A program made the translations under genes and the position numbers. The notes beneath the pieces are model-generated. The model saw only the letters and a program-made list of their open reading frames with translations, was not told the origin of the DNA and did no database searches. From a virus (Duplodnaviria; Caudoviricetes), in IMG/VR virus record IMGVR_UViG_3300033121_001345, positions 4,825 through 68,824 of that record: DNA of 64,000 nucleotides, one strand, 5' to 3'. This document shows positions 1 to 47,711 of the stretch, in pieces. Every line of letters begins with the position of its first letter. Positions within the stretch are counted from its first letter, which is position 1.

Positions 1-3000
1 ATCATGTTCATCATCTTGCTTAATAGCTTATCGTCCTTTATAGCCATTTTTCCAGCTGTAATACCTCTTCTGTAGTAAACAGATATGTTATTCTTTATAT
101 AGTCAAGAGATATATTGTCTATTGTTCCATCGTCAACTTTTTTATCATAGTCAGTCTTGTTAAATATCTCCTTTTTAAACAATCCATTAAGAAATACTCT
201 GTGTGGTTCATTTAACATATAGAATAACTCTTGGTCGAACCTTTTCTCAATCATCTCAAACGCATTAGTATTCAATGATGTTATTGAACGTTTTCTTGAT
301 TTTAAGAATTGAGTTGATGTAGAAAGATTATTCCTTGTTCTGAATTGATAGTCAGGTCTAACTTTTCCAGCTTCATCTTCAAAAGCTTCAGAACCTTCTA
401 TTTTAGATTCATTAAACCTAAGCATTGGTGCATAATTCCTTACAGATTCATAAGGACTGTCCTGATTGTTTGTATATGCATCTGATGTTTCCTTCATTGT
501 TCTTCCGTCTGTAAACTCTCCAGATTGAAGCCTATCAAAAAGCGAAACTCCTATACCATAAAATTCTTTTTCTCTGTCATTTAATTCTATTTTGGATTCA
601 ACAAGCTCTGCTACGCTATTGTGACCTGTCGCACTTAAAAGTTGTAGCCTTTTATCTCTTACATGAGAACGAACTACATCTGCCCATCCGTCAGTTCCAA
701 GTTTTTCAACTTGATGTCCAGACACAGCCATCATTATATCTGTACTATTAGTCATTATCTTTATATGACGATTATAGTCAACATCTGACATTCCCTCTGG
801 TCTTTCTCCGTGAGATATTATAATACTGTCTTTTATATGTTTTAATCTTAAGTCTAAAAGTTTAGTATATATTTCAAAGAGTTTTGCATCACTTTCTTTC
901 ATATCGGTTCTTTGTTCATATACACCGTTTTTATCTTTAACATAAAACATATCTGCACTTAAAACATCTCCTGGCATTAATAGTTTTTTTGCGTCAACTA
1001 TATCTATTCCAGCATCTTCAAATACATTGGTATTAATGTTTTCAATTTCATCTCTAAAGTACTCAAAGTCATCTTTTGATATTTTAATATCTGGCTTCTG
1101 AGAAAGTAACCAATATACTCCAATCTTATTAAACTGACCAAGAGTAAGATTCATATTTGAATCTTTGTTTCCTTTGAACTGATTTATATTTGTAAACACA
1201 TTATTCAGGGTTGTCCTCATCCTATCACTATTAGCTTCAAGTGGTGCGAATATTGTCTGAACCATTACTCCTCCATAATCCTCTCTTATTCCATCAAGGA
1301 AGTTTAATGCATCTTTAAGATTGTAATTAGACAATGCTCCGAATCCATAAGGATTAAGAAATCTGTTTGATAAGCTTCTTAATGCAGTTCCATGACTTCT
1401 TTGCCAACTATTATTAATCTCTCTAAGTTTCTTTCTCCAAAAGTCTGAAATGTCTTGTTGTATAAGTTCTTCTGCTTTTCTTGAGTTAATATCAACAATA
1501 AGATTAACAACTTCTGGACCAACAGTATATCCTTCTGGGCTTCTTGATATTGTTGAAAGTATTTCTCCGTATCTCTTAAGTTCAGCATCTGTCATATCTG
1601 ATATGTCAAGACTAAAAAACTCTGATTCTGTTGGTTTTGTAATATCTACTTTTCCTTGCTGAATAGCATAATCTCTTGCTTTTGATGTTACTTCCTCTCG
1701 TCCTTTTCTAAGTTGCATAACTTCATAATCAGAAGGTGTATATGGCTCATAAGTATCATTTATATCAATACCATTAAGTTCTGCTTCTGCTGAATTATTT
1801 AATCTTTCTTGTGCAACCTCTGCTTCATATTGCTTAGATTTTTCTTCATAATATTCTACTCTTTTTGTAAAATCTAATATACCCATATCACTTGGAGTAG
1901 TCTGAAGTAATCTGTTGTATGATTCAAGTTCTCCTATTTTTGTTCTTACACCATCCTCTGATATACCGATAAACTCTGGATTAACTCTTGCAAGTCTCAT
2001 TAAAAGATTATAGAACTCTACGTTTGTTCTTCTTTTTGCATAAACATTTTTTACAGCAGACTCTCTGAACCTGTTCATCTGTTGCCAAGCAAACTTAAAC
2101 CTTGAGTTTGATATTATTGCCTCAAATAGCTTCATGTGCTTTTCGTATCCTTCTGGAGTAGAAAACTTTGGAGTCTTTATAAGCTTCATGAGGTCTGGGT
2201 TTATTAACCTTGAGTTACCCTTGTATCTTTGACCTATATACTGTTTTTTATACGCTTCGAATATTTTATGAAGATAATCAAGAGAAGCCTTTCTTGTATC
2301 TGGGTCAAGAATATTATTCTTCATTTGCTCTATAATATCAACAACTACTTTTTTGTCAATATTCTCTCTTATTGACAGTCTCCCATACGCTGTTTCTATG
2401 TAAGTTTCAAGGTCAAAAAGTTTATTTTTGTTTCCTATTAAACTTTCAAATACATCTCTTACTTCTTTTGTAAGCTTTATTTTAATAGCACCACTCTTAA
2501 CAGCACCATATATTTCTTTCATCCATTCTTTAAAATGAGATAAAAGTCTTCTTACGTTCATATCTGTTATCTTTAATCCATCTCCGCCTTTTCCACCATC
2601 ATGAAGATATGACTCAAAGCTTCTTGCAAAAAACTCGTTTATAAACTGAAAGTTATCTAAATTGTGTTCTCCTTTAAACTCCTGTGAATCAAAGAATTTC
2701 TTACCCTCTTCTGACATTGCAAAATCATCAAAAGCATCCATGTATTCTTTTGCTTTTGCGTTGCCTTTCTCTGCGTATTCTTTAAGTATAAATCTGAATG
2801 AGTGTCCTAACTCATGCATTAATGTATCTATTTTTCCATTTTTAAGTATAGTTATAACATTGTTAGCATGGTCGTACATTCCTCTTATATAGTCATCTTC
2901 TACTTGTAGTAACTTGTTTTCATTTTCATTCTGATGATTAAATACATCTATATTATTCTCTACTTGGAATAACTTTTCCTTCTCAAGTTTGTATGTTTCT

Positions 3001-6000
3001 TGATTAGCAAGATTTTTTACTATTGCTGTATTTATTATTTTTATCTTTTCTGAATCAGGAATACCTGTATGTTGTGTAAACAAAGAGATTGCCCTTTCCT
3101 CTGGTGTCATTTGGAGTCTTTCTGCAGATGAGCGTGCCTGTATCTCTCCAAATGTTCTTAAGTATAAATTATATGCTATAGATTCTATTTCAGTATCATA
3201 CATTCCACTTTCTATATCATCAATACTTATTCCATCTTTTTTATTAAGATACTCTTCAACTAAAGGCTTTATAGCCTCAACGCTTGTTCCGTTTGGAAAC
3301 GCTTCTTCTGTTTGTATAAAATGCTGTATTTCGTGAAGAAGAGTACTTTTCCATTGTGCGTGCGAATCAGAATCAGTAGAAGTATTTTTTAATACTATGT
3401 CTTCTATTGTATTTTTATCTAATTTTACATCAGCACCAATATTACCAATTCTTAATGCTATTCCTAAGCTTTTACCAGACAGAGTAGTTGTGTACGTTCC
3501 TCTTGTATTCTCTGGTAGTTTTGTAGTAAATGTAACATTAAGGTCTCTTAACTTGGGATAATACTTAAAAATCTCATAATCAATCCCAAGTAAGTCTCCC
3601 ATCTTTATTGTAAATCCATCTCCGCTATCTAATACATTTACTTTGTTTTCTGGGAAATTAAGTTTAATATCTGAATCGTTAGTTTCAAATATCCATTCTC
3701 CTAAAAATGCATCATACTCCCAACCAGTAAGTTGTTTTATGCCAAGCTCGGTGTATCCTTTTTGTTTTAGTTTTTCTGCCAAAAGTCTTTTATCATAAAT
3801 TTCCTTTACTCTTTTTGCACCTTTTTCTCCTATTGCTTGAAATAATATATCTGGATTCTTGGCAATATTAGCAAGTGTAAATCTTCTCGTTACATTCCAA
3901 AGCTTCATTTCTGGAAGTATTCCATTCTTGAAGATATCAGCCGTATTCTTTATTATTCCCATTCTCACAAGATTATAAGAATAATACTTTATAACATTGA
4001 CAAGTGCATTTACTTGTTCTTTTGTAAAATTAGGATTATCTTTTACTACTGGCTCTAAGTACTTTCTTATATCTCTTTCAGATATTATCTTTTTATCTCT
4101 TATTGGATTGAGTGTGCTTATTTCATCATCAAGTATTCTTTCTTTTGGAGTATAATCTCCAATTATTATTCTGTTCTTTAGGTTTTCTATTTTTCTTGAG
4201 CTTATGATGTTTGAAAACTTCGCTACTCCATTTATTATATCAAAGATACTTATATAGTCAACTCTGTCAAGTATATATGTTCTTGACTCTGGGTCTATAT
4301 TATATCTTGATTTTAACATATCAAGAATTACCTTTCCATCAAGAGGATTTGCTCCGCCTTCGTCTGATTTTCCTGCAAACGTTTTATTAATAAGCTTTAA
4401 AGCCTTGTCAATTACAGCAAGTTGTTTTACGATTGAATATGCAGTAGTATCTGTTCCTTTTGCTCTTTCTGCAAGACCATTATAAACCCTTTGAAGTAAT
4501 TCGTATTTCTGTGGTTCTGTTAAAGAATCGTTTTTATGAAGAGTAAGAAATATTGCGAGCCTTACTTTGTTTGTAAGGTTGTTCATATTGGTAGCTACAA
4601 AGTTCATAAAATCTACAGCGTCTGTATTTTTATCAGAGAACATTACAGTTCCATCTGTAGTAGCTTCTATATCAAATACATTTCCATCTTTATCCTTTAA
4701 GCCTGTCGTTTTAAATCCAGAAGGAACAAGGTTTCCGTCTGGGTCTTTAGTTGGCTCAAGGTCAATATCTGGTTTATCAGTATGTCCAAGTTTAACTTCG
4801 TCGTTTACAAACACTATACCTTCAACAAGTATATTATCTCTTGTCTTATATACTCTTTTTGCTTCATCAAGTATATTATTTAAGTATTCTTTCTTTTGGT
4901 CTGATGCTATACAATCTTGTATAAGTTTTGCCGTTATCTCAAAATTTGGTGCTGGATTATCACCAGGAGATGCTATGTATCTTTCTATACTATCTTCAAG
5001 TCTTTTTAATTTAAGTATCTCTATTTGAGAAAACTCAAGAAATGTTTTCGTTGACGGTATTAATCCCTGTTCTACCTGCAAATTATACTCATCGTAAACT
5101 TTTTTGATATGCTCAAGGTTATCTATGTTTCTTTCAAATTTAAGTTTAGACATTACATCATTATAGTAATCTATATCAAGTTTACCAGATGCCATTACCT
5201 GTGCCTCTACTGATTTTACGCTTTTATACTCTGATTCAAATGATTGCATGTATTCTTTAAACGACATGTTTTCAATTCCAGAATCTTCAAACTTATTTCT
5301 TAATTCAACAAGGTTTCCGAGTATTACACTTAGTTTATGTTCACCTTTTTGCTGAAGTTTTTCTATGTTTGATATAATATTATCGTACTTTGACTTTTCA
5401 AGATATGAGTCGCTTGTTGCATTTATTATATCTTTTAATATTGATTTGAATATTTTAAAATCAGACCTTAAGTAGTCTGGAAATATAAACATAGCATTCT
5501 TTGCTGATACATTAGTTATATCAGTATTTGTTGCTGATATATCAAAGAAGTCAGGTCTGTATTCTTGATATGCTATTCCTTTTATTCCTCTATTTAATGT
5601 TCCAAGAGTAAACGAAGTTCCAGCGTGTAGGAACGCTAATGGTGCTAATGTGTATATACTGTTTAAAAACTCTTCTTTTATATCAAAGTCAAAGTCGTTG
5701 TCTGATATATTAAGTTCACGTTCTAATGTATCAACAAGTATTCTGTTATATAAGCTTATAGATGTTAAACCTACAGCACCGTTAAGTTGTCCAAAAAATA
5801 CTTGTTTATTATCTTTTGCAACCCATCTTAAATAAGGAGAAAGTGCGTTAAACACTTTATATGCAATAGCTTCAGAATATGCCTTTTTTGTCTGTGGTTC
5901 TGTTATTAAACTTATGAAACTTTGTGTTGCAGCTTTTGTTTCTGGGTTTGATTTTAATATTGATAAATCCTTAGTAAATGCATTAACTATTCCTTTTGTT

Positions 6001-8786
6001 GCTTTTGAAACTCCTCTTTCTGCAAAATGTCCCATATACATAGTAGAGTTCTGTATTATATGAGTTCCAAGTGCATCAAGGAATACCATAGCATTTGACT
6101 CTGTATTTTTAAGATGCTCTTCTTTGTTTTCCCATTTACAGTCTTCATAGTTAAACATAGCCTCAACATGCTGATTTGAAAGTTCATAGAACGTTCCAGC
6201 ACCACCTAATGCAAATGTTACTGGTGTTATCATTCCTCCTTTTAAAAATGCAGTTGCTACTTCTTTTCCTACTGTAGTTAATGCTCTTACTCCTTTACCT
6301 TCCATTCCAGAAAGTATAAGTCCATAGGTTATTATGTTATCAAATACAGTAGCTACATTACCTTCTCCAACAGCAACTCCAGCTACACCCATAGAATTAA
6401 ATGCAGCAAACTCAGCTACAAGTTTTATTAAGTTTGGAACTGCAACGTTTCCTAATGTATATGGAGTGAGTTTTACTTGATTTAAAGAATGTGCTATTGC
6501 TGATAGAGCTCCTATAGCATCTACTACCCTTATCTCCTCTTTTGTTCTTGAAAAATTTGGTTTTTTAAGAATCCTGTTAAGTTCTATTTGCTCTACGGAA
6601 CCTATTAAACTTCCTAAGAATGGAATTGTATCTTTTGCCTCTGTTTTTGATAATCCGTAAAAGAAATCTGAAACAACACCAGCTGGCTGTTGTGGTAAAG
6701 ACATTATTCTGTCATAAATAACATCAAATAGTTGCCTTGCTGTTTTTTCGTCAGATGGTATATCGTAATTATGAGTTCTTATATCTGGCATCGCCATAGC
6801 CGCTAATCCTGCTCCTTTTAGGAACTTTGGAAGTTCTGGACTTGAAAGACCACTTGTTTTTTGCTCTAATTCCCTTTCTTTATCTATCTCTTTCTTATAC
6901 TGAATCATAGTTCCAATAAGTGCCTGAATATGTATAGGCATTCTTATTGTCCCTTTCATGCTTTGTATAAAATCAGTTTCAGATTTTCCTGTAGCATTAT
7001 GATGCCAATAATAAGATAACGCAACTATTTTTTGCTGAACAGTTGAGTATAAATAATCTTGTGACTGTAAAACCTGTTTTAACTTCGGATTCATTTTTTC
7101 TGGAAGTACAGGTGCTAATTTTGCTTTTACAAACTCTTCATAATTAAAAGCGTTTACAGCATTAGTATATTCATTAAAGATTATCCCTTCGTCTATATTG
7201 CCTTTATACTTATCGTATATCATAGCAATCCAACTGTTTGCCTTTATTTCATCTATCTTTATTTGTTGTTTTCTATACTTCTCTAATAAATTCTTAAGTG
7301 CTATTTCGTTTTTATCTGTTGTTGTGTATTCGTCTTCTTGTTTTTTAGCTTTTACAAAAAGTTCTTTTACAGCTTCTTTTTTCTTTGATAATTCTGCTAA
7401 CTGTTGTTTTACATCTAATACACTTTTACTATCCTTTACTTTTCCTAATTTTAACTCTAAAGATTTTATCTTTTCATTTATAGGCTTTATTGATAAAGAT
7501 TCTATTATATCATTCTTTATCTTTGCATTATCATTGTACTCCTGTATTTTATCATCTGGAATTATTGCGTTTCCATTCTCATCTTTTGGAGATTCGTTTT
7601 CTAACTTCAAGATAGCCTCATCTGCTTTCTTTATTTTTTCTTTTGTTTCTGCTGGTATCTCCTGAATTATAGTTGAAAGCTTGCCGTACTCTTCTTCAAG
7701 TGCAGCAGATGTTTCTATATACTCTTTTGCTTGGGCATCATTTTTATATACTTCAGCTATTGCTTTACTTGCATCCTCTATTTCTTTTGATGTTTTAAAG
7801 AAAACACCCATATCTCCTGTCGCTGCAAGTTCCTTTCTTTGTTTCTGTACTGTTGCATTAAGCTCTTGTATTTCCTTTGATGTTTTTACTGCATCTGATA
7901 CAGATTTTTTATATGACTGGTCATTTAGAAATTCTTGATATTTACTTGACTTTTCAGATACCTTTCCGAGAATACTTTTATAATCAACATTACCAGATGC
8001 TACTGCATCATTTAGTATTTTAAAGTTATCTACTGCTTTAATATCACTAAGGTTGTTATCTTTTATATACTCAGTTGCATCGTCATTTGATACTATTGAT
8101 GTTGGTATTGATGTAGCACCTGTATTCCACATTTTTGCAAGAGGAAACTGATTTGCCTCTATTCCGCCTAATTCCTTAAATACATCGTTGCTTTTTGAAA
8201 CAGCTTGCTGAGCCTTTACATAAGACTCTTGTTGTATTCTTTTTGCTATTTCTTCTTGTGATTGAGTCTGTTGTCTAAAAGCATCATCTACAGATACAGG
8301 TGCATTTATTGCAGAAATAAAATAATCTCCTGCAAGATTATCAACATTCTTTTTTACTGTAGGATTATTTATATCCTTTTGTACATCTCTTACTCTTTTA
8401 TTTACTTCTTTTACAGACTCTTCTATTTTTCTTTTTACAGAATCTGGACTGTCTGATGATGTAGATGTTATTTTTACAATAGGTATTCCATTAGATTGCA
8501 AAGTTGCATCTATATCTTCTGCTTTTTTAGTATTTACTGTTGCTGGCTTTACCTGCTCTTGTGTCTTTTTTGCAGGTGGTACGTTTGGTACAAACGGTAT
8601 GCTAAATGGAATTGGCATGGAGATTCCGTCATTATCTCCAGGTTGTGTTTTACTTACTCCATCTCCAGAAAAGAATTTTTGTCTCTCTGTTCCTGTGTCG
8701 TAGTACTTGTCTCCAGTTATTACTACGTTTCCTTTTGGAAATGATGTTCCAGATGGTTCTTGTGCTTTTTGGTTTTGTTTTGCCAT
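1..8786 (-). CDS. Giant (>2,928 aa, 3'-truncated) polyvalent virion/ejection protein with an LPD23-like region and two HExxH zincin (MPTase-like) domains
   Basis: ATG at 8786 (MAKQNQKAQEPSG...). The frame matches at both ends, and I met no stop when translating by eye to the window edge. Motifs: TGWEYDAFLGEWIFETNDS, LLHEIQHFIQ (3321-3335), GEIQARSSAERLQMTPEER, LMHELGHSF (2802-2816) with downstream EFFARSFESY. Absent from the ORF track because its stop lies outside the window. Confidence 0.85.
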   Translation of the reverse strand, partial: MAKQNQKAQEPSGTSFPKGNVVITGDKYYDTGTERQKFFSGDGVSKTQPGDNDGISMPIPFSIPFVPNVPPAKKTQEQVKPATVNTKKAEDIDATLQSNGIPIVKITSTSSDSPDSVKRKIEESVKEVNKRVRDVQKDINNPTVKKNVDNLAGDYFISAINAPVSVDDAFRQQTQSQEEIAKRIQQESYVKAQQAVSKSNDVFKELGGIEANQFPLAKMWNTGATSIPTSIVSNDDATEYIKDNNLSDIKAVDNFKILNDAVASGNVDYKSILGKVSEKSSKYQEFLNDQSYKKSVSDAVKTSKEIQELNATVQKQRKELAATGDMGVFFKTSKEIEDASKAIAEVYKNDAQAKEYIETSAALEEEYGKLSTIIQEIPAETKEKIKKADEAILKLENESPKDENGNAIIPDDKIQEYNDNAKIKNDIIESLSIKPINEKIKSLELKLGKVKDSKSVLDVKQQLAELSKKKEAVKELFVKAKKQEDEYTTTDKNEIALKNLLEKYRKQQIKIDEIKANSWIAMIYDKYKGNIDEGIIFNEYTNAVNAFNYEEFVKAKLAPVLPEKMNPKLKQVLQSQDYLYSTVQQKIVALSYYWHHNATGKSETDFIQSMKGTIRMPIHIQALIGTMIQYKKEIDKERELEQKTSGLSSPELPKFLKGAGLAAMAMPDIRTHNYDIPSDEKTARQLFDVIYDRIMSLPQQPAGVVSDFFYGLSKTEAKDTIPFLGSLIGSVEQIELNRILKKPNFSRTKEEIRVVDAIGALSAIAHSLNQVKLTPYTLGNVAVPNLIKLVAEFAAFNSMGVAGVAVGEGNVATVFDNIITYGLILSGMEGKGVRALTTVGKEVATAFLKGGMITPVTFALGGAGTFYELSNQHVEAMFNYEDCKWENKEEHLKNTESNAMVFLDALGTHIIQNSTMYMGHFAERGVSKATKGIVNAFTKDLSILKSNPETKAATQSFISLITEPQTKKAYSEAIAYKVFNALSPYLRWVAKDNKQVFFGQLNGAVGLTSISLYNRILVDTLERELNISDNDFDFDIKEEFLNSIYTLAPLAFLHAGTSFTLGTLNRGIKGIAYQEYRPDFFDISATNTDITNVSAKNAMFIFPDYLRSDFKIFKSILKDIINATSDSYLEKSKYDNIISNIEKLQQKGEHKLSVILGNLVELRNKFEDSGIENMSFKEYMQSFESEYKSVKSVEAQVMASGKLDIDYYNDVMSKLKFERNIDNLEHIKKVYDEYNLQVEQGLIPSTKTFLEFSQIEILKLKRLEDSIERYIASPGDNPAPNFEITAKLIQDCIASDQKKEYLNNILDEAKRVYKTRDNILVEGIVFVNDEVKLGHTDKPDIDLEPTKDPDGNLVPSGFKTTGLKDKDGNVFDIEATTDGTVMFSDKNTDAVDFMNFVATNMNNLTNKVRLAIFLTLHKNDSLTEPQKYELLQRVYNGLAERAKGTDTTAYSIVKQLAVIDKALKLINKTFAGKSDEGGANPLDGKVILDMLKSRYNIDPESRTYILDRVDYISIFDIINGVAKFSNIISSRKIENLKNRIIIGDYTPKERILDDEISTLNPIRDKKIISERDIRKYLEPVVKDNPNFTKEQVNALVNVIKYYSYNLVRMGIIKNTADIFKNGILPEMKLWNVTRRFTLANIAKNPDILFQAIGEKGAKRVKEIYDKRLLAEKLKQKGYTELGIKQLTGWEYDAFLGEWIFETNDSDIKLNFPENKVNVLDSGDGFTIKMGDLLGIDYEIFKYYPKLRDLNVTFTTKLPENTRGTYTTTLSGKSLGIALRIGNIGADVKLDKNTIEDIVLKNTSTDSDSHAQWKSTLLHEIQHFIQTEEAFPNGTSVEAIKPLVEEYLNKKDGISIDDIESGMYDTEIESIAYNLYLRTFGEIQARSSAERLQMTPEERAISLFTQHTGIPDSEKIKIINTAIVKNLANQETYKLEKEKLFQVENNIDVFNHQNENENKLLQVEDDYIRGMYDHANNVITILKNGKIDTLMHELGHSFRFILKEYAEKGNAKAKEYMDAFDDFAMSEEGKKFFDSQEFKGEHNLDNFQFINEFFARSFESYLHDGGKGGDGLKITDMNVRRLLSHFKEWMKEIYGAVKSGAIKIKLTKEVRDVFESLIGNKNKLFDLETYIETAYGRLSIRENIDKKVVVDIIEQMKNNILDPDTRKASLDYLHKIFEAYKKQYIGQRYKGNSRLINPDLMKLIKTPKFSTPEGYEKHMKLFEAIISNSRFKFAWQQMNRFRESAVKNVYAKRRTNVEFYNLLMRLARVNPEFIGISEDGVRTKIGELESYNRLLQTTPSDMGILDFTKRVEYYEEKSKQYEAEVAQERLNNSAEAELNGIDINDTYEPYTPSDYEVMQLRKGREEVTSKARDYAIQQGKVDITKPTESEFFSLDISDMTDAELKRYGEILSTISRSPEGYTVGPEVVNLIVDINSRKAEELIQQDISDFWRKKLREINNSWQRSHGTALRSLSNRFLNPYGFGALSNYNLKDALNFLDGIREDYGGVMVQTIFAPLEANSDRMRTTLNNVFTNINQFKGNKDSNMNLTLGQFNKIGVYWLLSQKPDIKISKDDFEYFRDEIENINTNVFEDAGIDIVDAKKLLMPGDVLSADMFYVKDKNGVYEQRTDMKESDAKLFEIYTKLLDLRLKHIKDSIIISHGERPEGMSDVDYNRHIKIMTNSTDIMMAVSGHQVEKLGTDGWADVVRSHVRDKRLQLLSATGHNSVAELVESKIELNDREKEFYGIGVSLFDRLQSGEFTDGRTMKETSDAYTNNQDSPYESVRNYAPMLRFNESKIEGSEAFEDEAGKVRPDYQFRTRNNLSTSTQFLKSRKRSITSLNTNAFEMIEKRFDQELFYMLNEPHRVFLNGLFKKEIFNKTDYDKKVDDGTIDNISLDYIKNNISVYYRRGITAGKMAIKDDKLLSKMMNM

Positions 8787-11788: not shown

Positions 11789-14700
11789 TACTTTAGAATT
11801 TTATATTGAATATCAACAGATGTTATAGATATATTGTCCTTACCGTTATACATTATTCTGAATAGAATTTTGTTATCTTGGTATCTTTTCGATGTATATG
11901 GATTTCTTGGTATATAATTAGTATAACCTCCGTACTTATTCATATTATCTCCGCTTATAGAAGAGTGTATTGTATCTTGGTTATCCTTTAAGAAATCTAT
12001 TGATAACTTATCTTTTTCCTCAAGTTCCTTTTGTGTATTTACTTGTATTCTTACAAATTCTTTTTCTTGCTCAAGGTCTTCTTTATCTGGGTTTATAACA
12101 TCTATTATTTCTGCTTTTATGTATTCGCCATTAAGTATGTTTCCAGATTCAAGTTCATAACACTTCATATTTCTAAATCCGTACTTTTTGCCATTAGAAG
12201 TCTGAATTTTATCGAAGATATACTCATTTTCAGAAACCCAAGCTTTTACGTTTTCACGAGTACAATATACAAACACATTACGCACATTTTCAAGTGTTTC
12301 TTTGTTTATTACTTGGACACTCCATTCTGCATCATTTTCAAACTCATTTACTGAAACTACTGTTCTTGTTATTTTAAAGTACTCATCGCCTGCATCTAAT
12401 ATATGTTCTGTAAGTGTACTTGTAGCATCCTCGTATATTCTTACTGTAACATCTTGTGCAACAACTTTTCTTATGTAAAATGATTTATTTAATGTTATAT
12501 CAAGTGGAGAGTTTTCTATTAACTTTAAAAATACTTCGTCTGAAAACTCATCGTTGTACAGAATCTCAAAAAGAATATTATTACAATCAGTTATGTCATA
12601 GTAGTTATTGTTTGTTTCTTCTGGAGTATCAAAGCACATATCATTTGCAACTACTACAGGAAGCTTTGTTATGAATCCATACTCATTAAATTTGTTATCA
12701 TAGAATCCATGTCCTAAGCATTCTAATTCAACTATGTTTCTTCCTGCTTCTGCTGTTCTTTTAAAGAGATTTCCAAATGATTCTTGAACTTCATTTATGA
12801 TACTTTCTCTGTTTCCATCTGTAATATCTTTTACTTTATCTTGTCCTTCTTCAAACATAAATACACCGTTCTTATTTGCATAAAATGCCCTGTTTCCATC
12901 TTCAGCCCAAGTCCATTTATGCAATTTTTGCAATCCCTTTTTAGCACCTATGTTTTGCCATTCTTCCTGATTTATAAACTGAGAATCCGAGTTTCCTGTT
13001 GTTCCTATAATATTTCCAGATGCATCCGAAAGAGTCCTTTTACTGACAAGCAATAATGCTATATCATTTTCGCAGAATGCATACAGATTATCTCCATATC
13101 TATCTGATGATATAAACAGCTTTCTTCCATCTCCAAACTTATCAGATATATCTTTATAATTAAATGGTCTAAATGTTTTAAGATTAGGAGCATTAAAACT
13201 TTGTATTGGTCTTGTCTGTGACCATATTACTCTTGTGCAATATTTTACATTTTTTTCTTGTAAAAAGAATTTTTGGGAAAATACTTTATAGTGCTCTGGA
13301 AGCGTACTGTAATTTGGATTTTTACCTGTTATTTGATTTGTTCTAAATCCACCCATATTCCATTTTTCTTTTTCAGACTCTGTATAATCTGTTAAATAAC
13401 CAGAATGTATATGATTTTCTTGTGTAGTATTAGATACACTCCATACAAGAGGTCTTTCAACGTAAGATATGTTTGGATAAAAGTCACCATACATATATGA
13501 AAGATTAATTCTGGATTGGCATATATAAGACCAAAGCCATTGTCTTATAAAATTAAGACCATGAATCTTTCCAGTTACAAAACCATAGTGAGTTATTCCA
13601 TCCTTTATCCAGCACTTTTTTACATTTTGATTTAACTTATACTGCATAAAAGGCATACCTACTCCAAGCATAAACTGATTTTTGTATTCACTTAGTGATA
13701 CCTGAAATGAGTTATCACCATTATCATCTCTATATTCAGATATATTTCCTCCATTGTTGCACTCTCTGTCTTTATATGTAAATATTGCTCTGTTATGCAT
13801 TATATCTCCTCCAAATACTGAGATAGGGTAATTTTTATTATACATAACAATTACCTTATCTCCAAATCTTATCTTTGTACTGTTCTGTGTATATACAGTA
13901 TATGAATAATCTGTACTTATGTATATAAAGTTTCCTATTGTTTTATATTTTCCATGTATCTTTTTTCCACAATAACTATCTGAATTATTATCAATATCAT
14001 AATCAATAGCGGAAATATCACCTGGAAAATATGTTTCTATTTCTGTGATATTTATGAAATTAAGCATAACATTGTTTCTTTCTATAAAAATAAAATTTAT
14101 ATCCTTTTTAGTTTTTCTTACTTTATAATCCTCTACTCTCTCGTCTACACATTCAAATACCTGTGTATCATCATTGTTGCAAAGCCCAACTGTAGATTTT
14201 ATTTTTATATAGTTTATAGGTGCTTGATATTTTACTAATGACTCATCTTTTATTTCTGCAGAATCATTTATTATATTTACTATATATACATGCTCATGAA
14301 ATTTTTTTACTTCTTGTTGTGACCAATGCCTTGCTGTAAAGTCAACTATGTCTTTATTCATCCAAACATCATCCTCCACTTCAATTTCAAGATAAAAAGA
14401 ATTATTTTCTATTATTTTTGAAACAGATACTATATTTGTTTTAAATCCATCAGAACTTGGTAGTTGGTTTAAAAACATAGAAAGTGATGTTATTATACTT
14501 CCTTTCATAGCCCTATTTCCCCCAAAATATGCATACTTGTCAGTCCATACTGTTCCATCATCAAGTCCAACCATTGAGCCTGTCATTAAATCTTCATTTT
14601 GGCAAACAGCGTGTGTAACCATGTCTATCTGATGTGATAAATTAACTGCCGTAGTGTCAAAAGATGTTCCTGTATTTAATGATGATTTTGATGCATGCAT

Positions 14701-41973: not shown

Positions 41974-42138
41974 ATGTATATCTTTATTTTTGAAGGCGAC
42001 GAGCCAAAAATCAGTGACAAAGTAACTCAAGAAGATATGAATTCATCTGATGATGGTGTTCTTGAAATCATAAGAACATCTGATAATAAACGTTACTTTG
42101 AAGGAGAATGGATAGATATGAAAACTTGGGATAACTAA
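41974..42138 (+). CDS. Small acidic hypothetical protein (54 aa)
   Basis: In-frame ATG within track ORF 41926-42138 with good context. Confidence 0.5.
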   Translation: MYIFIFEGDEPKISDKVTQEDMNSSDDGVLEIIRTSDNKRYFEGEWIDMKTWDN

Positions 42139-42148
42139 TAAAAATAAT

Positions 42149-42544
42149 ATGATAACAAAATATGTATTCAGGAGAAATATTCCAGAGAATTACTGGAAGG
42201 CATTTCTTATATGTGAATGTGAGAATCCATCTGTATCAAAAAAGATAAAAAACTTTGGAGATATATGCGATACATGCAAAAGAGCAATTTTATCTGATAA
42301 GGATTCAATTCAAGAGTATTCGACAACAGATTCTGTACTTGGAAACATTAAAAAGATTAATAAAAAAGTTGCAGAGTTATCCACGTCACTGGAAGATTCA
42401 TCATTAAAAGATGAAACAAATGAAACAAGTAACAGTGAATGGAAACCAGAAGAATGCTCTTGTCTTCATCCGATGCTATCAGAAGATATGTTTTCTGGTA
42501 AATATATTTGCCTTAAGTGTAATTTACATAAATCGTCTAATTAA
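42149..42544 (+). CDS. Cys-rich hypothetical protein (131 aa)
   Basis: CECE, CDTC, CSC, CLKC motifs. Confidence 0.55.
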   Translation: MITKYVFRRNIPENYWKAFLICECENPSVSKKIKNFGDICDTCKRAILSDKDSIQEYSTTDSVLGNIKKINKKVAELSTSLEDSSLKDETNETSNSEWKPEECSCLHPMLSEDMFSGKYICLKCNLHKSSN

Positions 42545-42554
42545 AAACTGAATA

Positions 42555-42971
42555 ATGAAACAGAAAATAGAGTCCGCCATTAGAGAAACACTTGTTATAA
42601 CAAATAAACAAAGTATTTCAAGGGCAGTAGAAAAAATACTAATTACAACAGAACAGGAGCAAGAAATCACCGATGTTTCTGTTTGTAAATGTAAAGATAA
42701 AATAGGAGAAACGAAACTTTTGTGTTGCAATGCAGTATTAGTGGATAAATGGATTTCAGTAAACGACAGATTGCCTGAAAATGAAAATCCATTCTCTAAT
42801 GATGTCGTTCTTTTTTGGAGCAAGAAACATGGCTTTTGGATGATAGGATGTTATGATTATGAATTTTCAGACTGGACAAGACTTCCGTGGGAGAAAGGAT
42901 ATAAGTCATTGTCATTTGATGATGTTACACATTGGATGCCTTTGCCGGAACGTCCGACAGATTGCGACTAA
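42555..42971 (+). CDS. DUF551-domain protein
   Basis: WISVNDRLPE...VTHWMPLPERP; its stop TAA is part of the first attC-like inverse core. Confidence 0.85.
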   Translation: MKQKIESAIRETLVITNKQSISRAVEKILITTEQEQEITDVSVCKCKDKIGETKLLCCNAVLVDKWISVNDRLPENENPFSNDVVLFWSKKHGFWMIGCYDYEFSDWTRLPWEKGYKSLSFDDVTHWMPLPERPTDCD

Positions 42972-43096
42972 CAGTATTCCGCTATGAGTAGTGGCGGATT
43001 TAGAACTACTCACTTTAAATTTAGCACAAATGTTAATAGAAAGCACAAATGTTAAATTACCACTTCAACCGCCTTTACTTATAGCGGATATTAGCG
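42966..43096 (+). repeat. attC-like site 1 (131 bp; core variant A|TTAGCG)
   Basis: GACTAAC + 5 nt + TCCGCTATGAGTA..GGCGG / CCGCC..TACTTATAGCGGA + T + ATTAGCG. Confidence 0.75.
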
Positions 43097-43434
43097 GTAG
43101 TACTTCTTGGGACGAATGGTTATCTGAAACGGAAACCAAACTCAAAGAATTAGGATACAGAAGATACGTTCAAAATCATAAAAACGAAGATTTCTGTTAT
43201 TGGAAAACTTTTAAGAATGGTGAAGATAAAACCTATCAGATAGGTATATTATTTTATGATTTTAGAAAGTATGCAGACAGTGACCCAGACGCAAATAGAA
43301 TAGGAATAATGTATGAATGTAGGATTTTAGATGAGGGTAGAATTGATATGTCTGTTAGTAAAAACATTGATTTGGTAGAGTTTGAAAATATGGCACAAAC
43401 TTTTTACGTAGCAATGTCGCAGTATTGCCACTAA
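43030..43434 (+). CDS. Cassette A hypothetical protein; start codon lies inside site 1
   Basis: Track ORF 42991-43434; in-frame ATG at 43030; no Met for about 75 codons after the crossover. Confidence 0.7.
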   Translation: MLIESTNVKLPLQPPLLIADISGSTSWDEWLSETETKLKELGYRRYVQNHKNEDFCYWKTFKNGEDKTYQIGILFYDFRKYADSDPDANRIGIMYECRILDEGRIDMSVSKNIDLVEFENMAQTFYVAMSQYCH

Positions 43435-43514
43435 CGGTTTGCGTATAAGAGATGTGGCACTTATATGAAGGTTAAAATCAAGGCACAAAGCCCAATGTGC
43501 CATATCTTTTATAC
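43429..43514 (+). repeat. attC-like site 2 (collapsed right end)
   Basis: CACTAAC + GGTTT + GCGTATAAGAGATGTGGCAC / GTGCCATATCTTTTATACGC; no separate G|TT core. Confidence 0.7.
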
Positions 43515-43583
43515 GCTGGCACGGATAGTTTAAGATAAAGTTCAATCGGCGCAGAAAAGAAAACAATAAATAATTTTTTAGCG

Positions 43584-44072
43584 ATGGCAAAATATATAGC
43601 ATTAACACAGGGGAAACAAGCATTAATTGATGATGATGTTTTTGAGAAATACGGAACAGTTCCTTTTCACGCCTCAAAGGTGAAGGATAAGTTTTATGCA
43701 AGAACATCAAGAACGCTTTTGCCTCATTCAATTAGAACCTACTTGCACCATTTGGTTATTGGTTTGCCATCAAATAAACAATGGATGATTTGCTTTAAAG
43801 ATGGAAATACCTTGAACTGCCAAAAAGAAAATTTGCAATACATACGAAAATCAGATAACACACAGAAGCATTCAAAATTGCAAACCGAAAGAAAGAAAAG
43901 TTCAAAGTATTTAGGAGTAACATTTAGACCAGCACACTTTAAAGCACGAATAAAATTTGATGGCAAAACAATAAACATTGGAGAATACAAAACAGAAGGA
44001 GAAGCTGCAAAAGCATACAACGATTACGCTAAAAAACTATTTGGAGAAAAAGCAAAACTTAATTCTTTATGA
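43584..44072 (+). CDS. Cassette B: HNH-AP2 family protein with degenerate HNH
   Basis: LTQGKQALIDDD, LHHLVIG, CFKDGNTLNCQKENL (His of the usual DH missing), SSKYLGV...AAKAYNDYAKKLFGEKAKLN. Confidence 0.85.
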   Translation: MAKYIALTQGKQALIDDDVFEKYGTVPFHASKVKDKFYARTSRTLLPHSIRTYLHHLVIGLPSNKQWMICFKDGNTLNCQKENLQYIRKSDNTQKHSKLQTERKKSSKYLGVTFRPAHFKARIKFDGKTINIGEYKTEGEAAKAYNDYAKKLFGEKAKLNSL

Positions 44073-44138
44073 GGGCAGAAAAAATTATTTATTGTTTTCT
44101 AACGAAAAGTTAAATCGGAGAACGAATGCAGTGCTTGC

Positions 44139-44236
44139 GTATAACGTTTTGCAGCTAACAGAAGTGTATGCTTGTAAGAACTTCTGAATTAAAAACAAAT
44201 GCTTGTAGCAGCCATTTTTGTTAGGTGCTGTTATAG
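44139..44236 (+). repeat. attC-like site 3 (98 bp)
   Basis: GTATAAC + GTTTT + GCAGCTAACAGAA / TTTTGTTAGGTGC + T + G|TTATAG. Confidence 0.8.
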
Positions 44237-44255
44237 GTAGTAAAATTTACGGAAT

Positions 44256-44483
44256 ATGAAAATAGAAACTAAAGAAAATCAGATTATTTTGAAAGAAGTG
44301 TATAACTCAATTACACTTGAAACACGAGAAGGAAAGCAATTACATATCTGTATGAGAGATATGGGATTTGAAATGAAGATTGATGATGGTGATTGGCACT
44401 TGCTAACTAACGAATCTGATTTTCTGATTAAACCAAAAGGATTTCAATACAGAGAGCCAGACTTTCCAGTAGCACAAGGGTAG
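44256..44483 (+). CDS. Cassette C hypothetical protein (75 aa, own ATG)
   Basis: ORF track; lies wholly inside cassette 44231-44622. Confidence 0.75.
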   Translation: MKIETKENQIILKEVYNSITLETREGKQLHICMRDMGFEMKIDDGDWHLLTNESDFLIKPKGFQYREPDFPVAQG

Positions 44484-44496
44484 TAAATTTTATTCC

Positions 44497-44628
44497 CTAT
44501 AACGTTTTGCGGCTATGCTTAGTGCCGTATTTAAAAGACTAAGCCAATCTTAAACAACAAAATTAATATGGAAAATACAGGATTATTTAACACAGAAGGT
44601 AAGGCATTGAGCATAGCCGATGTTATGG
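44497..44628 (+). repeat. attC-like site 4 (132 bp)
   Basis: CTATAAC + CGGCTATGCTTAGTGCC / GGCATTGAGCATAGCCG + AT + G|TTATGG. Confidence 0.85.
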
Positions 44629-44777
44629 CTATGTTGCCTACTACAATGATTAACAGAGTTGAAGTGATTGACGAAAACGGGAGAAGCTACGTTAATTGGA
44701 AGCCAACTAACAGAACTGAATTGCAAGTGCAAGACAACGGTAGAACGCTAAAAGTATTTGTGTCGCAAGGCAATTAG
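44568..44777 (+). CDS. Cassette D hypothetical protein (69 aa; first 18 aa encoded by site 4)
   Basis: ORF track; KALSIADV is the translated right arm of site 4. Confidence 0.7.
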   Translation: MENTGLFNTEGKALSIADVMAMLPTTMINRVEVIDENGRSYVNWKPTNRTELQVQDNGRTLKVFVSQGN

Positions 44778-44831
44778 CCATAACGGACGAGTATTTGCGC
44801 TCGTTTTAATGGCGCAAATACTTTGTTGCCA
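44778..44831 (+). repeat. attC-like site 5 (compact, 54 bp)
   Basis: CCATAAC + GGACG + AGTATTTGCGC / GCGCAAATACT + TT + G|TTGCCA. Confidence 0.85.
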
Positions 44832-44888
44832 GTAGTAGCGGTTGATTAGGATAAAACTAAATTAGAAACGAAAATAAAAATAGCAATT

Positions 44889-45212
44889 ATGGCACAGATA
44901 CACGATGATTTTGAAAAGGCAATACTGCAATGCGGATTTAAAAAAGATTATAACAAGCAGTATGATTACCAAATGTATGATGGAACTTGGTTTTATAAAC
45001 TAAATTTTGAGGGATACGCTTATGTGCTTTACAAAGAGATAAATATTTATGTAAAACCACTTATGAGCCTTTTTAAAATCTACAACAAATTTGCAAAAGG
45101 AACGGCACAAATAGGATTGCATTACGCTGTGCCTATTGCACACTTTAGAGAACCGCAAAAGCTAATTGACATAATTACTATTTTAACCGATAAACTTGAT
45201 GAAAAGGACTAA
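44889..45212 (+). CDS. Cassette E hypothetical protein (107 aa, own ATG)
   Basis: ORF track; inside cassette 44826-45349. Confidence 0.75.
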   Translation: MAQIHDDFEKAILQCGFKKDYNKQYDYQMYDGTWFYKLNFEGYAYVLYKEINIYVKPLMSLFKIYNKFAKGTAQIGLHYAVPIAHFREPQKLIDIITILTDKLDEKD

Positions 45213-45224
45213 CGTAGCTATTAC

Positions 45225-45355
45225 TGGTAACGGCTACGGCTTTGCGTTAGTGCCGTAATAGAATTACTAACGCTCAATTTAAAACAAAAGTAAAATGGAA
45301 GAACAAAACTTGATTAAACAACCGAACTCGGCATTGCACAAAACCGCTGTTAGTG
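45225..45355 (+). repeat. attC-like site 6 (131 bp)
   Basis: TGGTAAC + GGCTA + CGGCTTTGCGTTAGTGCCG / CGGCATTGCACAAAACCG + CT + G|TTAGTG; one extrahelical base. Confidence 0.85.
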
Positions 45356-45837
45356 GCAGTGCTTTGAGATACAACGGTGGTAAATTACGTTGGTCGCTTG
45401 TTGACTTTGATGCCTTAGAAGATATGGTTAAAGTCTTGGAATTTGGGGCGAAGAAATACGCTGATAATAACTGGAAGAAAGGTCTTAAAACGCCTGAGAT
45501 TTTTGAAAGTATGATGAGGCACATGACTGCATATATGCGTGGTGAAGATATTGACACTGAAAGTGGGTTACCACACACAGGTCATATATTATGTAATGCG
45601 ATGTTTTTGTCATATATGCAGCGTTTTAAGCCCGACTTTGATACAAGGCACAAAGACAAAAACAAGCGGTTAGGTGCTGTTATAAGCCGTTATTCTGATG
45701 CCGATATATTTAGGTTTTCAGATGGATGGTGGATTACAACGTATAGTAAGGAGCAAAAGAGATTTATAAAGTTAATAGGTAGCTTCAAAACTAAAGATGA
45801 AGCAAGGGCTGAAATTCGTTCACTTAATGGCTTATAA
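45295..45837 (+). CDS. dATP/dGTP diphosphohydrolase (DUF5664-like) fused in frame to cassette G ORF
   Basis: RYNGGKLRWSLV, VLEFGAKKY..NNWKKG, RH..AY..GEDIDTESGLPH..H..CNAMFL; extra 53-aa tail after an internal half site. Confidence 0.85.
   Translation: MEEQNLIKQPNSALHKTAVSGSALRYNGGKLRWSLVDFDALEDMVKVLEFGAKKYADNNWKKGLKTPEIFESMMRHMTAYMRGEDIDTESGLPHTGHILCNAMFLSYMQRFKPDFDTRHKDKNKRLGAVISRYSDADIFRFSDGWWITTYSKEQKRFIKLIGSFKTKDEARAEIRSLNGL
45669..45685 (+). repeat. attC-like half site (right arm and core only)
   Basis: GTTAGGTGCTGTTATA is identical (16 nt) to the right arm of site 3 at 44220-44235. Confidence 0.75.
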
Positions 45838-45962
45838 CGGACGGGGCTTTGCGTTCGGGCGGATTTTGAAAAACTAAAGTTGAATAACAGATGGAGTTAA
45901 ATAGAAATACAAATGTTGAAAGTTTGCACGTCAGCCAGCCTGACGCAAAACCCATGTTATAC
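45832..45962 (+). repeat. attC-like site 7 (131 bp)
   Basis: TTATAAC + GGACG + GGGCTTTGCGT / ACGCAAAACCC + AT + G|TTATAC. Confidence 0.8.
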
Positions 45963-46646
45963 GCTGGGGCGGTTGAAAAGGCACAGATTTCCATTTATAA
46001 CGAAGATTGTTTGCAAGCATTAAAGGCAATGGCAGACAAACAATTTGATTTGGCGATAGTTGACCCGCCTTATGGGATTGGTGCAAGTAGTAAAAATTTT
46101 ATTAGGCAAGGTAAGCAAACTGGCAAAAGTATGGCTGTAAGTGGAATAAAATATACTGCTAAGGATTGGGATAATTGTGTGCCTGATAAAATTTACTTTG
46201 ATGAATTAAGGCGGGTTTCAAAAAATCAAATTGTATGGGGTGGCAATTATTTTGCTTCTTCATTACCAAATAGCAGTTGCTGGCTTATATGGGATAAGGT
46301 AACAGGCGATAATTTGTATGCTGATGCTGAACTTGCTTGGACTTCATTTGAGAAAGCTGTAAGGAAATTTACTTGGATGTGGAAAGGGATGTTTCAGCAA
46401 AATATGGCTAATAAGGAGGATAGAATACACCCAACTCAAAAGCCTGTTGCATTATACAAATGGATACTTGAAAACTATGCAGAAAAAGGAAGCAAAATAC
46501 TTGACACCCATTTAGGAAGTGGAAGCATTGCCATTGCCTGCTGGGATATGGGATACGATTTAACAGCGTATGAGGTTGATAAGGAGTATTACGATAATGC
46601 TTGCAAACGATTAGAAACGCATAAGTCTCAATTAACGCTGTGGTAG
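45891..46646 (+). CDS. Cassette H: DNA amino-methyltransferase (beta class, m6A/m4C)
   Basis: Catalytic IVDPPY precedes SAM-binding ILDTHLGSGS; HPTQKP motif. Confidence 0.92.
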   Translation: MELNRNTNVESLHVSQPDAKPMLYAGAVEKAQISIYNEDCLQALKAMADKQFDLAIVDPPYGIGASSKNFIRQGKQTGKSMAVSGIKYTAKDWDNCVPDKIYFDELRRVSKNQIVWGGNYFASSLPNSSCWLIWDKVTGDNLYADAELAWTSFEKAVRKFTWMWKGMFQQNMANKEDRIHPTQKPVALYKWILENYAEKGSKILDTHLGSGSIAIACWDMGYDLTAYEVDKEYYDNACKRLETHKSQLTLW

Positions 46647-46653
46647 CCCTTGC

Positions 46654-46741
46654 GTATAACAGTCGTATAGATGCAGTCCGTGAGGTCGGAAAACCTAACA
46701 ACTACCTGTGTGCCGAGGATTGCATCTATACTTTGTTATAA
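46654..46741 (+). repeat. attC-like site 8 (88 bp, last in array)
   Basis: GTATAAC + GTATAGATGCAGTCC / GGATTGCATCTATAC + TTT + G|TTATAA. Confidence 0.85.
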
Positions 46742-46899
46742 ATATAACTATATCTATTGTGATTATCGTTTAAAATTCGTTATTTTTGATGATAATTTAA
46801 TCAGCAATATTTTATCATAACAATAATAAAACAAAAAATTACGCTGTATTACATGGCAAATTTTGCGTATTTTTGCAACGTTACAAACAATTACAAAGC

Positions 46900-47274
46900 A
46901 TGTATAAACCACTCGTAATAATAGAGTCACCTTATGCTGGTGACATAGAAAGAAATATAAAATATGCAAGAGCTTGCATAAAAGATTCTTTAAAAAGAGG
47001 CGAGGCGCCTATAGCATCTCATTTGCTTTATACACAAGAAGGAATACTTAATGATAATATTTTCGAGGAAAGGGAACTTGGAATTAAAGCTGGATTAGCA
47101 TGGCTAAGTGTTGCACATAAACAGGTATTCTATATTGATTATGGATTCTCAAATGGAATGAGAAAAGCACTCGATTACTCAAATAAGAACAATCTTAATG
47201 TTATCATAGAGACAAGGACGCTGTATTCAGACAGTCAAAATAATTCATTATTAGAAACAATTAAAGAAGAATAA
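46900..47274 (+). CDS. Nucleoside 2-deoxyribosyltransferase-like phage protein
   Basis: VIIESPYAGDIERNIKYAR, GEAPIASHLLYTQ, ERELGI.AG, YIDYGFSNGM; TATTTTTG -7 box at 46868. Confidence 0.7.
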   Translation: MYKPLVIIESPYAGDIERNIKYARACIKDSLKRGEAPIASHLLYTQEGILNDNIFEERELGIKAGLAWLSVAHKQVFYIDYGFSNGMRKALDYSNKNNLNVIIETRTLYSDSQNNSLLETIKEE

Positions 47275-47711
47275 TGGCAGTTTCAGCAACAGCATTAGTA
47301 ACAGGTGGAAAGGTTAAATATCGAGTAGACCTTATAGAACATATTGATAGATTTGTCAAATTACGAGAAGGAAAGACAATAATCGTAACTTATGAAGACA
47401 ACCTTCTTGATGAATCTGAAAGAAACAGGATGGTCTCTTACTATAAAAGAGATGTTCTTCCAGCAGTATTTGATATGCTAACAAAGAATGGTGCTTCAGT
47501 AGAAACACTTGATGATGTTGACTGGTTTCTTGTTAACAAGTTTATGCCAAAGAAAAAAGTAACTTCACCATTTACAGGTGATATTCTTATACCAAAAAGA
47601 TTTAAAGACCTTGACGAAGTATCTATGGTTGACTTTTTATCAACTATATCTATGTGGACAACTACAACATACAGACAATCATTACCGAAAATTATAAGAA
47701 ATGAACGATAA
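47274..47711 (+). CDS. NinB/Orf-like recombination protein
   Basis: YY..V.PAV...FL..KF...FKDLD...M.DFL..I..W layout. Confidence 0.5.
   Translation: MAVSATALVTGGKVKYRVDLIEHIDRFVKLREGKTIIVTYEDNLLDESERNRMVSYYKRDVLPAVFDMLTKNGASVETLDDVDWFLVNKFMPKKKVTSPFTGDILIPKRFKDLDEVSMVDFLSTISMWTTTTYRQSLPKIIRNER

Follow-up and report, generated by a model that had tools for sequence, protein, structure and literature searches.

Eight imperfect palindromes in the genome of an N4-like phage are likely to be recombination sites that, in the manner of integron attC sites, act as folded single strands; they would form a class distinct from classical attC and delimit seven swappable gene cassettes, with a host tyrosine recombinase, here called X, as the probable catalyst. 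The palindromes, S1 to S8, were identified by direct reading, a repeat search, and folding in a 64-kb stretch (64,000 nucleotides, hereafter the window) of the 68,824-bp IMG/VR phage record IMGVR_UViG_3300033121_001345, which CheckV rates as complete, and all of them lie on the plus strand between positions 42963 and 46744.

Each palindrome opens with a YAAC box (the inverse core), in which the upstream gene often has its stop codon, and most close with GTTR (Table 1). The opening box is present in all eight sites and the closing box in six, S1 having ATTAG at this position and S2 no such box. The initial annotation had called the geometry of these sites non-canonical, and its measurements were borne out when the sites were read individually and aligned to the model described below: the spacer after TAAC is 5 nt long in six of the eight sites, with 4 nt in S8 and 5–6 nt in S4, the one preceding GTT is 1 nt in S3, 2 nt in S1, S4, S5, S6, and S7, and 3 nt in S8, and the arms range from 11 bp in S5 to 20 bp in S1, S2, and S4. 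The placement of S6 had to be corrected, from a CTAAC at the stop codon at 45214 to the inverse core GGTAAC that ends at 45231. The long sites S1, S4, S6, and S7 measure 137–138 nt including the flanks of the model, or 123–126 nt from the AAC box to the GTT box, and each of them contains the start codon annotated for the next open reading frame (ORF). The subtype represented by S7 has one extra base only. A gapless scan did not detect S1, S2, or S6. The arms of S2 open with GCGTATAAG, which closely copies GCGTATAAC, the inverse core found at the end of units 2 and 7, and S2 may be a duplicated or rearranged site.

Table 1. Sites, cassette units, and bordering genes of the array, in window coordinates (R1, covariance model; I, inverted repeat).
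Feature	Positions	Strand	Description	Scores and other evidence
S1	42963..43099	+	CTAAC ends 42972, contains TAA stop of DUF551 gene; spacer AGTAT; 20-bp arms 42978-42997, 43069-43088; degenerate core ATTAG at 43090; ATG of next ORF (43030) in loop	R1 85.4 bits, outside training set; I3 and fold
S2 (atypical)	43426..43527	+	CTAAC ends 43435; spacer GGTTT; 18-20 bp arms; GGCA where GTT core expected	R1 36 bits; I2; fold z-score -4.7
S3	44136..44239	+	GCGTATAAC ends 44145; spacer GTTTT; core GTTATA at 44230	R1 56.7 bits
S4	44494..44631	+	CTATAAC ends 44503; spacer GTTTT(G); 17-20 bp arms; core GTTATG at 44622; ATG 44568 in loop	R1 72.8 bits, but part of training set; I4
S5 (shortest)	44775..44834	+	CATAAC ends 44784; spacer GGACG; 11-bp arms; 11-nt loop; core GTTGCC at 44825	R1 30.4 bits; I19
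S6	45222..45358	+	GGTAAC ends 45231; spacer GGCTA; CGGCTTTGCG-type arms; core GTTAGT at 45349; ATG 45295 in loop	R1 78.1 bits, outside training set
S7	45829..45965	+	TATAAC ends 45838, its TAA being the stop of the upstream gene; spacer GGACG; GGGCTTTGCGTTCGGGCGG-type arms; core GTTATA at 45956; methyltransferase ATG (45891) in loop	R1 94.9 bits, but part of training set
S8 (resident site at array end)	46651..46744	+	GCGTATAAC ends 46660; spacer AGTC; 15-bp arms; core GTTATA at 46735	R1 29.1 bits
Seven cassette units	42973..46660	+	Hairpin plus downstream gene	Complementary ends, Pfam, metagenome contig ends
Unit 1	42973-43435	+	134 aa	
Unit 2	43436-44145	+	HNH-AP2	
Unit 3	44146-44503	+	75 aa	
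Unit 4	44504-44784	+	69 aa	
Unit 5	44785-45231	+	107 aa	
Unit 6	45232-45838	+	dGTP_diPhyd_N protein; itself apparently two fused units	
Unit 7	45839-46660	+	N6/N4 DNA methyltransferase	
Orphan right half-site	45669..45692	+	Arm GTTAGGTGC, T, core GTTATAAGCC; in frame inside ORF 45295-45837	
DUF551 gene	42555..42971	+	Left backbone border; stop codon within inverse core of S1	Pfam PF04448, E = 1.8e-10
DUF7768 gene	46873..47274	+	First backbone gene past array	Pfam PF24963, E = 4.7e-31

The sites belong to a family that is widespread in Bacteroidota. A pattern derived from S6 and S7 matched 73 genome contigs, about 20 of which carry sites with the arm sequences of S7 and a similar length. These S7-like sites occur in Sphingobacteriales, Chitinophagales, Cytophagales, and Flavobacteriales and in one Ignavibacteria genome, several of them a few kb apart within one genome. 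An alignment of 36 sites (34 bacterial sites together with S4 and S7) served to train a covariance model, R1; part of this training set was drawn from loci of recombinase X. The initial annotation had proposed the use of a covariance model; a search with R1, which derives mostly from bacterial sites, returned exactly S1 to S8 in the window, on the plus strand and at 29–95 bits (E 1e-5 to 2e-22), with S1 and S6 reaching 85 and 78 bits without having been used for training. The next-best plus-strand match in the 64 kb scores 7.5 bits, and the reverse strands of the eight sites score at most 14.6 bits. When the whole 68.8-kb genome was searched with the speed filters on, seven of the eight sites were recovered and none was found outside the array.

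Members of the family share the shape YAAC(G), 4–5 nt, a stem of 11–20 bp, a loop of 11–73 nt, the returning stem, 1–3 nt, and (T)GTTR. Across the 36-site alignment, AAC and GTT are invariant, and the G after AAC and the T before GTT are nearly so. The consensus stem of 17–18 bp is contiguous on both sides, contains no extrahelical bases, and covaries at nearly all of its pairs: 92.6% of the cells pair, compared to 38–48% with slid partners, and double changes are seen in 221 cells, compared to 74 in shuffles. Two stem positions hold G·T in 33 and 30 of the 36 sequences and are never “repaired” to Watson–Crick pairs, as a result of which only the strand with the long spacer first folds well. 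A generic hairpin scan of the fetched phage and bacterial loci yielded 76 sites with a modal length of 123–127 nt, 66 of which have spacers that differ by 2–6 nt; in bacteria, G·T pairs fall on the long-spacer-first strand by 90 to 24 (p = 4e-10), and the folding strand is antisense to the genes ending at the site in 39 of 46 cases. The asymmetry of 5 versus 1–3 nt, from which a distinct class of attC had originally been proposed, is a trait of the family, as is the uninterrupted stem without extrahelical bases. No published description of this site class or of its recombinase was found in the literature searched.

The ends of the seven units bear the marks of cassettes. The 14 nt that follow each GTT core complement the inverse core of the next site at 11–13 of 14 positions and the core of their own site at 7–9 of 14. 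Beyond the four bases shared by all sites, the two ends of a cassette are complementary at 7–9 of 10 positions, as opposed to 3–5 of 10 for the two ends of one site. The end-complementarity score was reached by only 4 of 5040 permutations, in a test where the core register of S1 and S2 is off by one or two bases (S1 to S2 gives 7 of 10 by hand). Complementarity across a gene is the signature expected of units that were once circles closed by a single site. The orphan half-site within unit 6 (Table 1) obeys the same rule, since the 14 nt from 45679 complement the end of the surrounding ORF (45825–45838) at 13 of 14 positions (repeat I11), and separate metagenome contigs cover 45266–45670 and 45666–45838. 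With a half-site that is in frame and pairs with the end of the ORF, the gene at 45295–45837 seems to have arisen by the in-frame fusion of two cassettes. The Pfam match of its dGTP_diPhyd_N product extends over residues 22–118 only, and the C-terminal ~52 residues are encoded past the orphan half-site.

Related phages locate the point of exchange. Outside inserted or replaced cassettes, the Polaribacter phages P12002L and P12002S match at 99% identity. Their differences break at six points, each of them YAAC|G on the long-spacer side, and the hairpin changes along with the downstream gene. The comparison of S8 with L002, the sole close relative that reaches the array (exonuclease 64% identical), agrees with this: S8 is kept in L002 (L002:203-294) with compensatory changes in its arms, a different gene and a different inverse core precede it, and the hairpin has stayed with the downstream sequence. 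Together, these breakpoints place the crossover at the box beside the long spacer. The classical crossover at G|TT, which had been assumed first, was ruled out by the same two comparisons. R1 finds 11 sites in P12002L, 10 on the coding strand and 1 on the other strand, and at least 9 on the coding strand of P12002S. Flavobacterium phage hemulen6-1 has seven R1 sites in 3.5 kb with the phage-type polarity, three of them ahead of methyltransferase genes. Relative to the gene, the crossover box is downstream of the hairpin in bacteria, which is the classical arrangement, and upstream in phages, where the unit therefore consists of a hairpin and the gene downstream of it, explaining the start codons in the loops. 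This opposite gene-to-site polarity of phage and bacterial arrays, with a phage hairpin that travels with the downstream gene, is new here.

The same boundaries are seen in metagenomes. Twenty public runs from 12 studies each contain at least one-fifth of the sampled words of the stretch, and wherever a habitat is recorded for them, it is that of a wastewater, sludge, bioreactor, or river metagenome. Cassette contigs from four wastewater runs terminate at 43436, 44504–44509, 44785–44786, 45230–45236, and 45838–45839, all of which are YAAC boxes, and backbone contigs start at 46657. The cassettes in these runs reach 10–100 times the depth of the phage backbone, and some contigs link them in a different order. 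As the contigs come from mixed communities, they reveal cassettes shared with other contexts rather than events in this phage. Variants of the 134-aa cassette (42983–43465) that are ~93% identical occur at up to 100 times the backbone depth in the wastewater runs, and methyltransferase sequences (45881–46363) are found at similar depths; these high depths imply that both genes reside in many other, more abundant genomes.

In the mechanism that we propose, the seven cassettes (42973–46660) would have been inserted between the DUF551 gene and the resident site S8 in an N4-like phage of Bacteroidota, with exchange taking place at the YAAC|G box that adjoins the long spacer. Because the phage box directly follows the stop codon of the upstream gene, the hairpin would move with the downstream gene and often hold its start codon. 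The catalyst would be the host recombinase X, a relative of Xer and IntI without the insertion specific to IntI. X is the candidate because it heads arrays of the same site family in Bacteroidota and the phage has no recombinase; co-location is thus what connects enzyme and site, and X would act on the phage DNA during infection at a bond and on a strand that we likewise infer.

Recombinase X was surveyed in 301 Bacteroidota genomes (GTDB phylum). Homologues were found in 111 of them, and true IntI, full-length and above the TIGR02249 cut-off, in 90, which far exceeds what published complete-genome surveys suggest. Of 25 X loci, 13 have R1 sites within 1.5 kb, invariably in the same polarity, compared to 1 of 20 loci of true IntI, where the match is weak (Fisher p = 9e-4), although the former count is partly circular, since some of the training sites came from X loci, and seven of the matches lie outside the training set. 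This difference agrees with the earlier suggestion that the sites are read by a different clade of tyrosine recombinases. For matches genome-wide, the folding strand nearly always reads towards the X gene, whichever way the gene is oriented. Sites are present in 34 of 40 genomes with X and in 18 of 40 without it, whereas there is no link to IntI (15 of 23 with and 37 of 57 without, or 65% vs 65%). The hairpins near Bacteroidota IntI genes have near-symmetric spacers.

One such locus is found in Rubrolithibacter danxiaensis, where five R1 sites and small accessory genes come after the gene (L078:6673-8265) for a tyrosine recombinase of 530 aa. Against TIGR02249, this recombinase scores 224 bits (cut-off 265), which makes it the best model, yet the match is in two pieces and archaeal XerA scores nearly equally; the segment bearing the IntI motif is missing. 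Its N-terminal 255 residues (L078:6673-7437) hold three W-rich repeats, for example, KWSKTQQAWHIP, and match Pfam HARP only below the threshold, at 14.8 bits. Many X homologues have open frames of 280–400 aa, which is insufficient for such an N-terminal extension.

A search of Bacteroidetes genomes for recombinases adjacent to the sites, with a check for the IntI-specific insertion, had been part of the initial annotation's proposal. X is what adjoins the R1 sites, and the ~40-residue insertion is missing from all 30 members inspected: the KGxKxR and HxxRH motifs are 58–63 residues apart in X (30 of 30 members) and 61–66 in housekeeping Xer (5 of 5), as opposed to 100 in IntI (19 of 19). For its integron-like subgroup, one classification paper describes the insertion as one that “is not fully conserved”. 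The I2 helix of IntI contacts the extrahelical base of folded attC (PMC3053210), and a site class without such bases thus fits an enzyme without I2. In a quick tree (L085-L111, L113-L132), X and IntI group together against Xer with a Shimodaira–Hasegawa-like approximate likelihood ratio (SH-aLRT) support of 100; IntI forms a clade, and monophyly of X is unsupported. These sequence comparisons hint that IntI, which may nest among X, arose by gaining the insertion, and the X family may be the stock from which it did so.

Apart from the circularity mentioned above, several observations weigh against folded-strand recombination by X. Eighteen of 40 genomes without a detected X nonetheless carry sites, and one true IntI, from Ignavibacteria, has a weak R1 match (22.9 bits) 1.6 kb away. 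In the array itself, the cores of S1 and S2 are degenerate, with ATT in place of GTT in S1 and no GTT core in S2. The end boxes of one P12002S site (L133, coding-strand B 12304-12370) are CAGGTAAC and GTTACCTG, which are fully complementary within the site instead of across the gene, something that the simple cassette model does not predict. The left-hand ends of the metagenome contigs vary in position. Finally, recombination activity on this phage genome is something that we infer, because the phage encodes no recombinase.

Some of these points would also be accounted for if the sites were genuine and the array a fossil, or if it had been rearranged by an agent other than X, such as an unrecognized phage enzyme or replication slippage at the hairpins. 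A phage without a recombinase, the degenerate cores of S1 and S2, the half-site fused into an ORF, and the many phage ORFs without a recognizable family are all compatible with this explanation. We nevertheless regard it as unlikely, because boxes and stems are intact in six of the eight sites, the ends are complementary in six of the seven cassettes, the same cassettes recur in other contexts in four metagenomes, and clean cassette events separate the cultured sister phages.

That the sites are ordinary attC substrates of IntI, with spacings inside the normal range of variation and the array a plain CALIN (cluster of attC sites lacking an integron integrase) derived from a classical integron, is in our judgment very unlikely. 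The YAAC and GTTR boxes do fit the RYYYAAC / GTTRRRY consensus, true IntI is common in the sampled Bacteroidota, one IntI locus has the weak R1 match noted above, and attC2, the other reported site of P12002L, was recombined by IntI1. However, R1 sites are enriched neither at IntI loci nor in IntI-positive genomes, the hairpins near Bacteroidota IntI have a different spacing, and the family is devoid of extrahelical bases. Furthermore, the sole tested site of the present shape was not recombined by IntI1. HattCI alone called this site, P12002L_attC1, which escaped the Infernal step, and it was the single one of six phage sites not to be recombined (PMC9892861). It consists of TAAC, GGCTA, a stem, 2 nt, and TGTTAG (L112:30002-30062), which is the geometry described here, and R1 scores it at 25.3 bits.

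It is hardly credible that the hairpins are RNA elements of the phage messenger (terminators, processing sites, or translational-control hairpins) whose cassette-like appearance is incidental: the well-folding strand is the coding strand in the phage, the arm mismatches are compatible with G·U, the loops hold start codons, and every site comes after a stop codon, but the bacterial members fold on the strand antisense to their genes, the cassette ends are complementary across each gene, phages that are 99% identical differ by whole cassettes with breaks exactly at the YAAC box, and no Rfam family matches window positions 42000–47500 at E up to 1, with T-runs not scanned. The folding strand in bacteria is the template strand, as in integrons, which removes an RNA hairpin as the primary function; a secondary RNA role alongside the DNA function may exist. 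Sense-strand RNA hairpins had been favored early in the analysis and were dropped because bacterial sites are antisense to genes and the breakpoints fall at the box.

The genome that carries the array has 33% G+C and an N4-like layout. Its minus-strand arm holds an ORF of more than 2,900 aa, and its plus-strand arm encodes a ligase, an exonuclease, a helicase, and a primase. The open frame of more than 2,900 aa, located at window positions 3–8786 on the minus strand, extends past the end of the window and fits the giant virion proteins of N4-like phages. The array sits in the plus arm among the replication genes, flanked by the DUF551 and DUF7768 genes, and the small genes inside it include those for an HNH-AP2 nuclease, the dGTP_diPhyd_N protein, and the N6/N4 DNA methyltransferase, as assigned by Pfam. 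The window had been described as having no recognizable tyrosine recombinase, and this extends to the complete phage genome, where no tyrosine recombinase (PF00589), serine recombinase (PF00239), or Y1 transposase (PF01797) was detectable in six frames. Searches of IMG/VR with the ligase and by alignment of the exonuclease found no close relatives, and a search of INPHARED by DNA or protein returned distant phages only. The HNH-AP2 gene (43584–44072) is flanked by a perfect inverted repeat of ~21 bp (43556–43579 and 44077–44100), with the imperfect direct repeat AAAGTT[C/A]AATCGG outside each arm, and looks like a nested mobile insertion inside unit 2.

It is also quite possible, if at this stage tentative, that Bacteroidota phages hold a cassette pool of their own with the opposite polarity, including methyltransferases, HNH nucleases, and nucleotide hydrolases, each with an upstream hairpin that supplies the start region, and exchanged at YAAC by a host recombinase without the IntI insertion. 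If so, unrelated virulent phages (N4-like, Polaribacter, Flavobacterium, and Cellulophaga phages) would trade counter-defense genes by means of a host enzyme. Current surveys define integrons by the IntI insertion and a single attC model, and find Bacteroidota nearly empty. A second site geometry, widespread and linked to a recombinase that lacks the insertion, would mean that cassette capture is independent of the IntI-specific domain, and that such systems are probably under-counted by current tools. It would also offer virulent phages a concrete, site-specific route to gain and swap methyltransferases and other accessory genes. The mechanism is open to direct testing in the P12002L/P12002S pair and its Polaribacter host, and the conserved G·T wobbles and the 4–5 nt bulge are features that can be mutated to probe strand choice without extrahelical bases.

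Compared to known systems, the closest resemblance is to integrons. In classical attC sites, the spacers measure 5 and 6 nt, and T-N6-G bases are extrahelical (PMC3053210; aadA7 sequence in PMC9892861); the aadA7 control indeed shows both spacer lengths, and one of its arms holds an extra base (PMC9892861). The sites described here share with attC the imperfect palindromes, the inverted ..AAC / GTT.. boxes, the variable loop (11–73 nt), selection for structure over sequence, and one strand that folds better. Moreover, as in integrons, each cassette carries one promoterless-looking gene and has mutually complementary ends with exchange inside an end box, and the bacterial arrays read away from a tyrosine recombinase gene. 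They differ in having spacers of 4–6 versus 1–3 nt instead of 5 and 6, a long uninterrupted stem with two conserved G·T wobbles in place of the T-N6-G extrahelical bases, one dominant size class (~124 nt from AAC box to GTT box), and a partner recombinase without the I2 insertion. In this phage, P12002L/S, and hemulen6-1, the genes lie on the folding strand, whereas the classical folding strand is complementary to the ORF.

Using IntegronFinder 2 and HattCI+Infernal, Qi et al. 2023 (PMC9892861) searched 10,705 phage genomes and reported integron components in 21, with two P12002L sites of “divergent directions”; P12002S and hemulen6-1 were not among the positives. Set against the 11, at least 9, and 7 sites that R1 finds in P12002L, P12002S, and hemulen6-1, these calls lend indirect support to the initial suggestion that standard models may miss such sites. 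The IntegronFinder 2.0 paper describes Bacteroidetes as almost devoid of integrons. The present array resembles the CALIN of virulent phages reported by Qi et al. 2023 (PMC9892861) in being an integrase-less, attC-type phage cluster rich in DNA methyltransferases. Unlike in that account, where the sites are treated as classical attC, R1 gives eleven sites in P12002L, ten of them co-oriented, rather than two. With the Bacteroidota system of R1 sites and X, the array shares the site model (29–95 bits), polarity, and size class, but it has no X gene and an inverted gene polarity, and thus represents a recombinase-less, phage type.

The attP site of the CTX phage is recombined by Xer on a folded single strand, with the whole phage integrating at dif. 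The proposed mechanism has in common with CTX an Xer-type recombinase without the IntI insertion and a hairpin formed by one DNA strand, but here there are many small arrayed cassettes, and the quick tree places X with IntI, apart from housekeeping Xer. The PeSL mobile regulatory cassettes of T4-type phages, said to have been described by Arbiol et al. 2010, are reportedly promoter-plus-terminator repeats that are thought to recombine by homology. As with PeSL, small accessory phage genes lie between repeated stem-loops and are shuffled among related phages; in the present case, however, the arms differ between sites, only the structure and the 4–5 nt boxes are common to them, and the breakpoints are site-specific.

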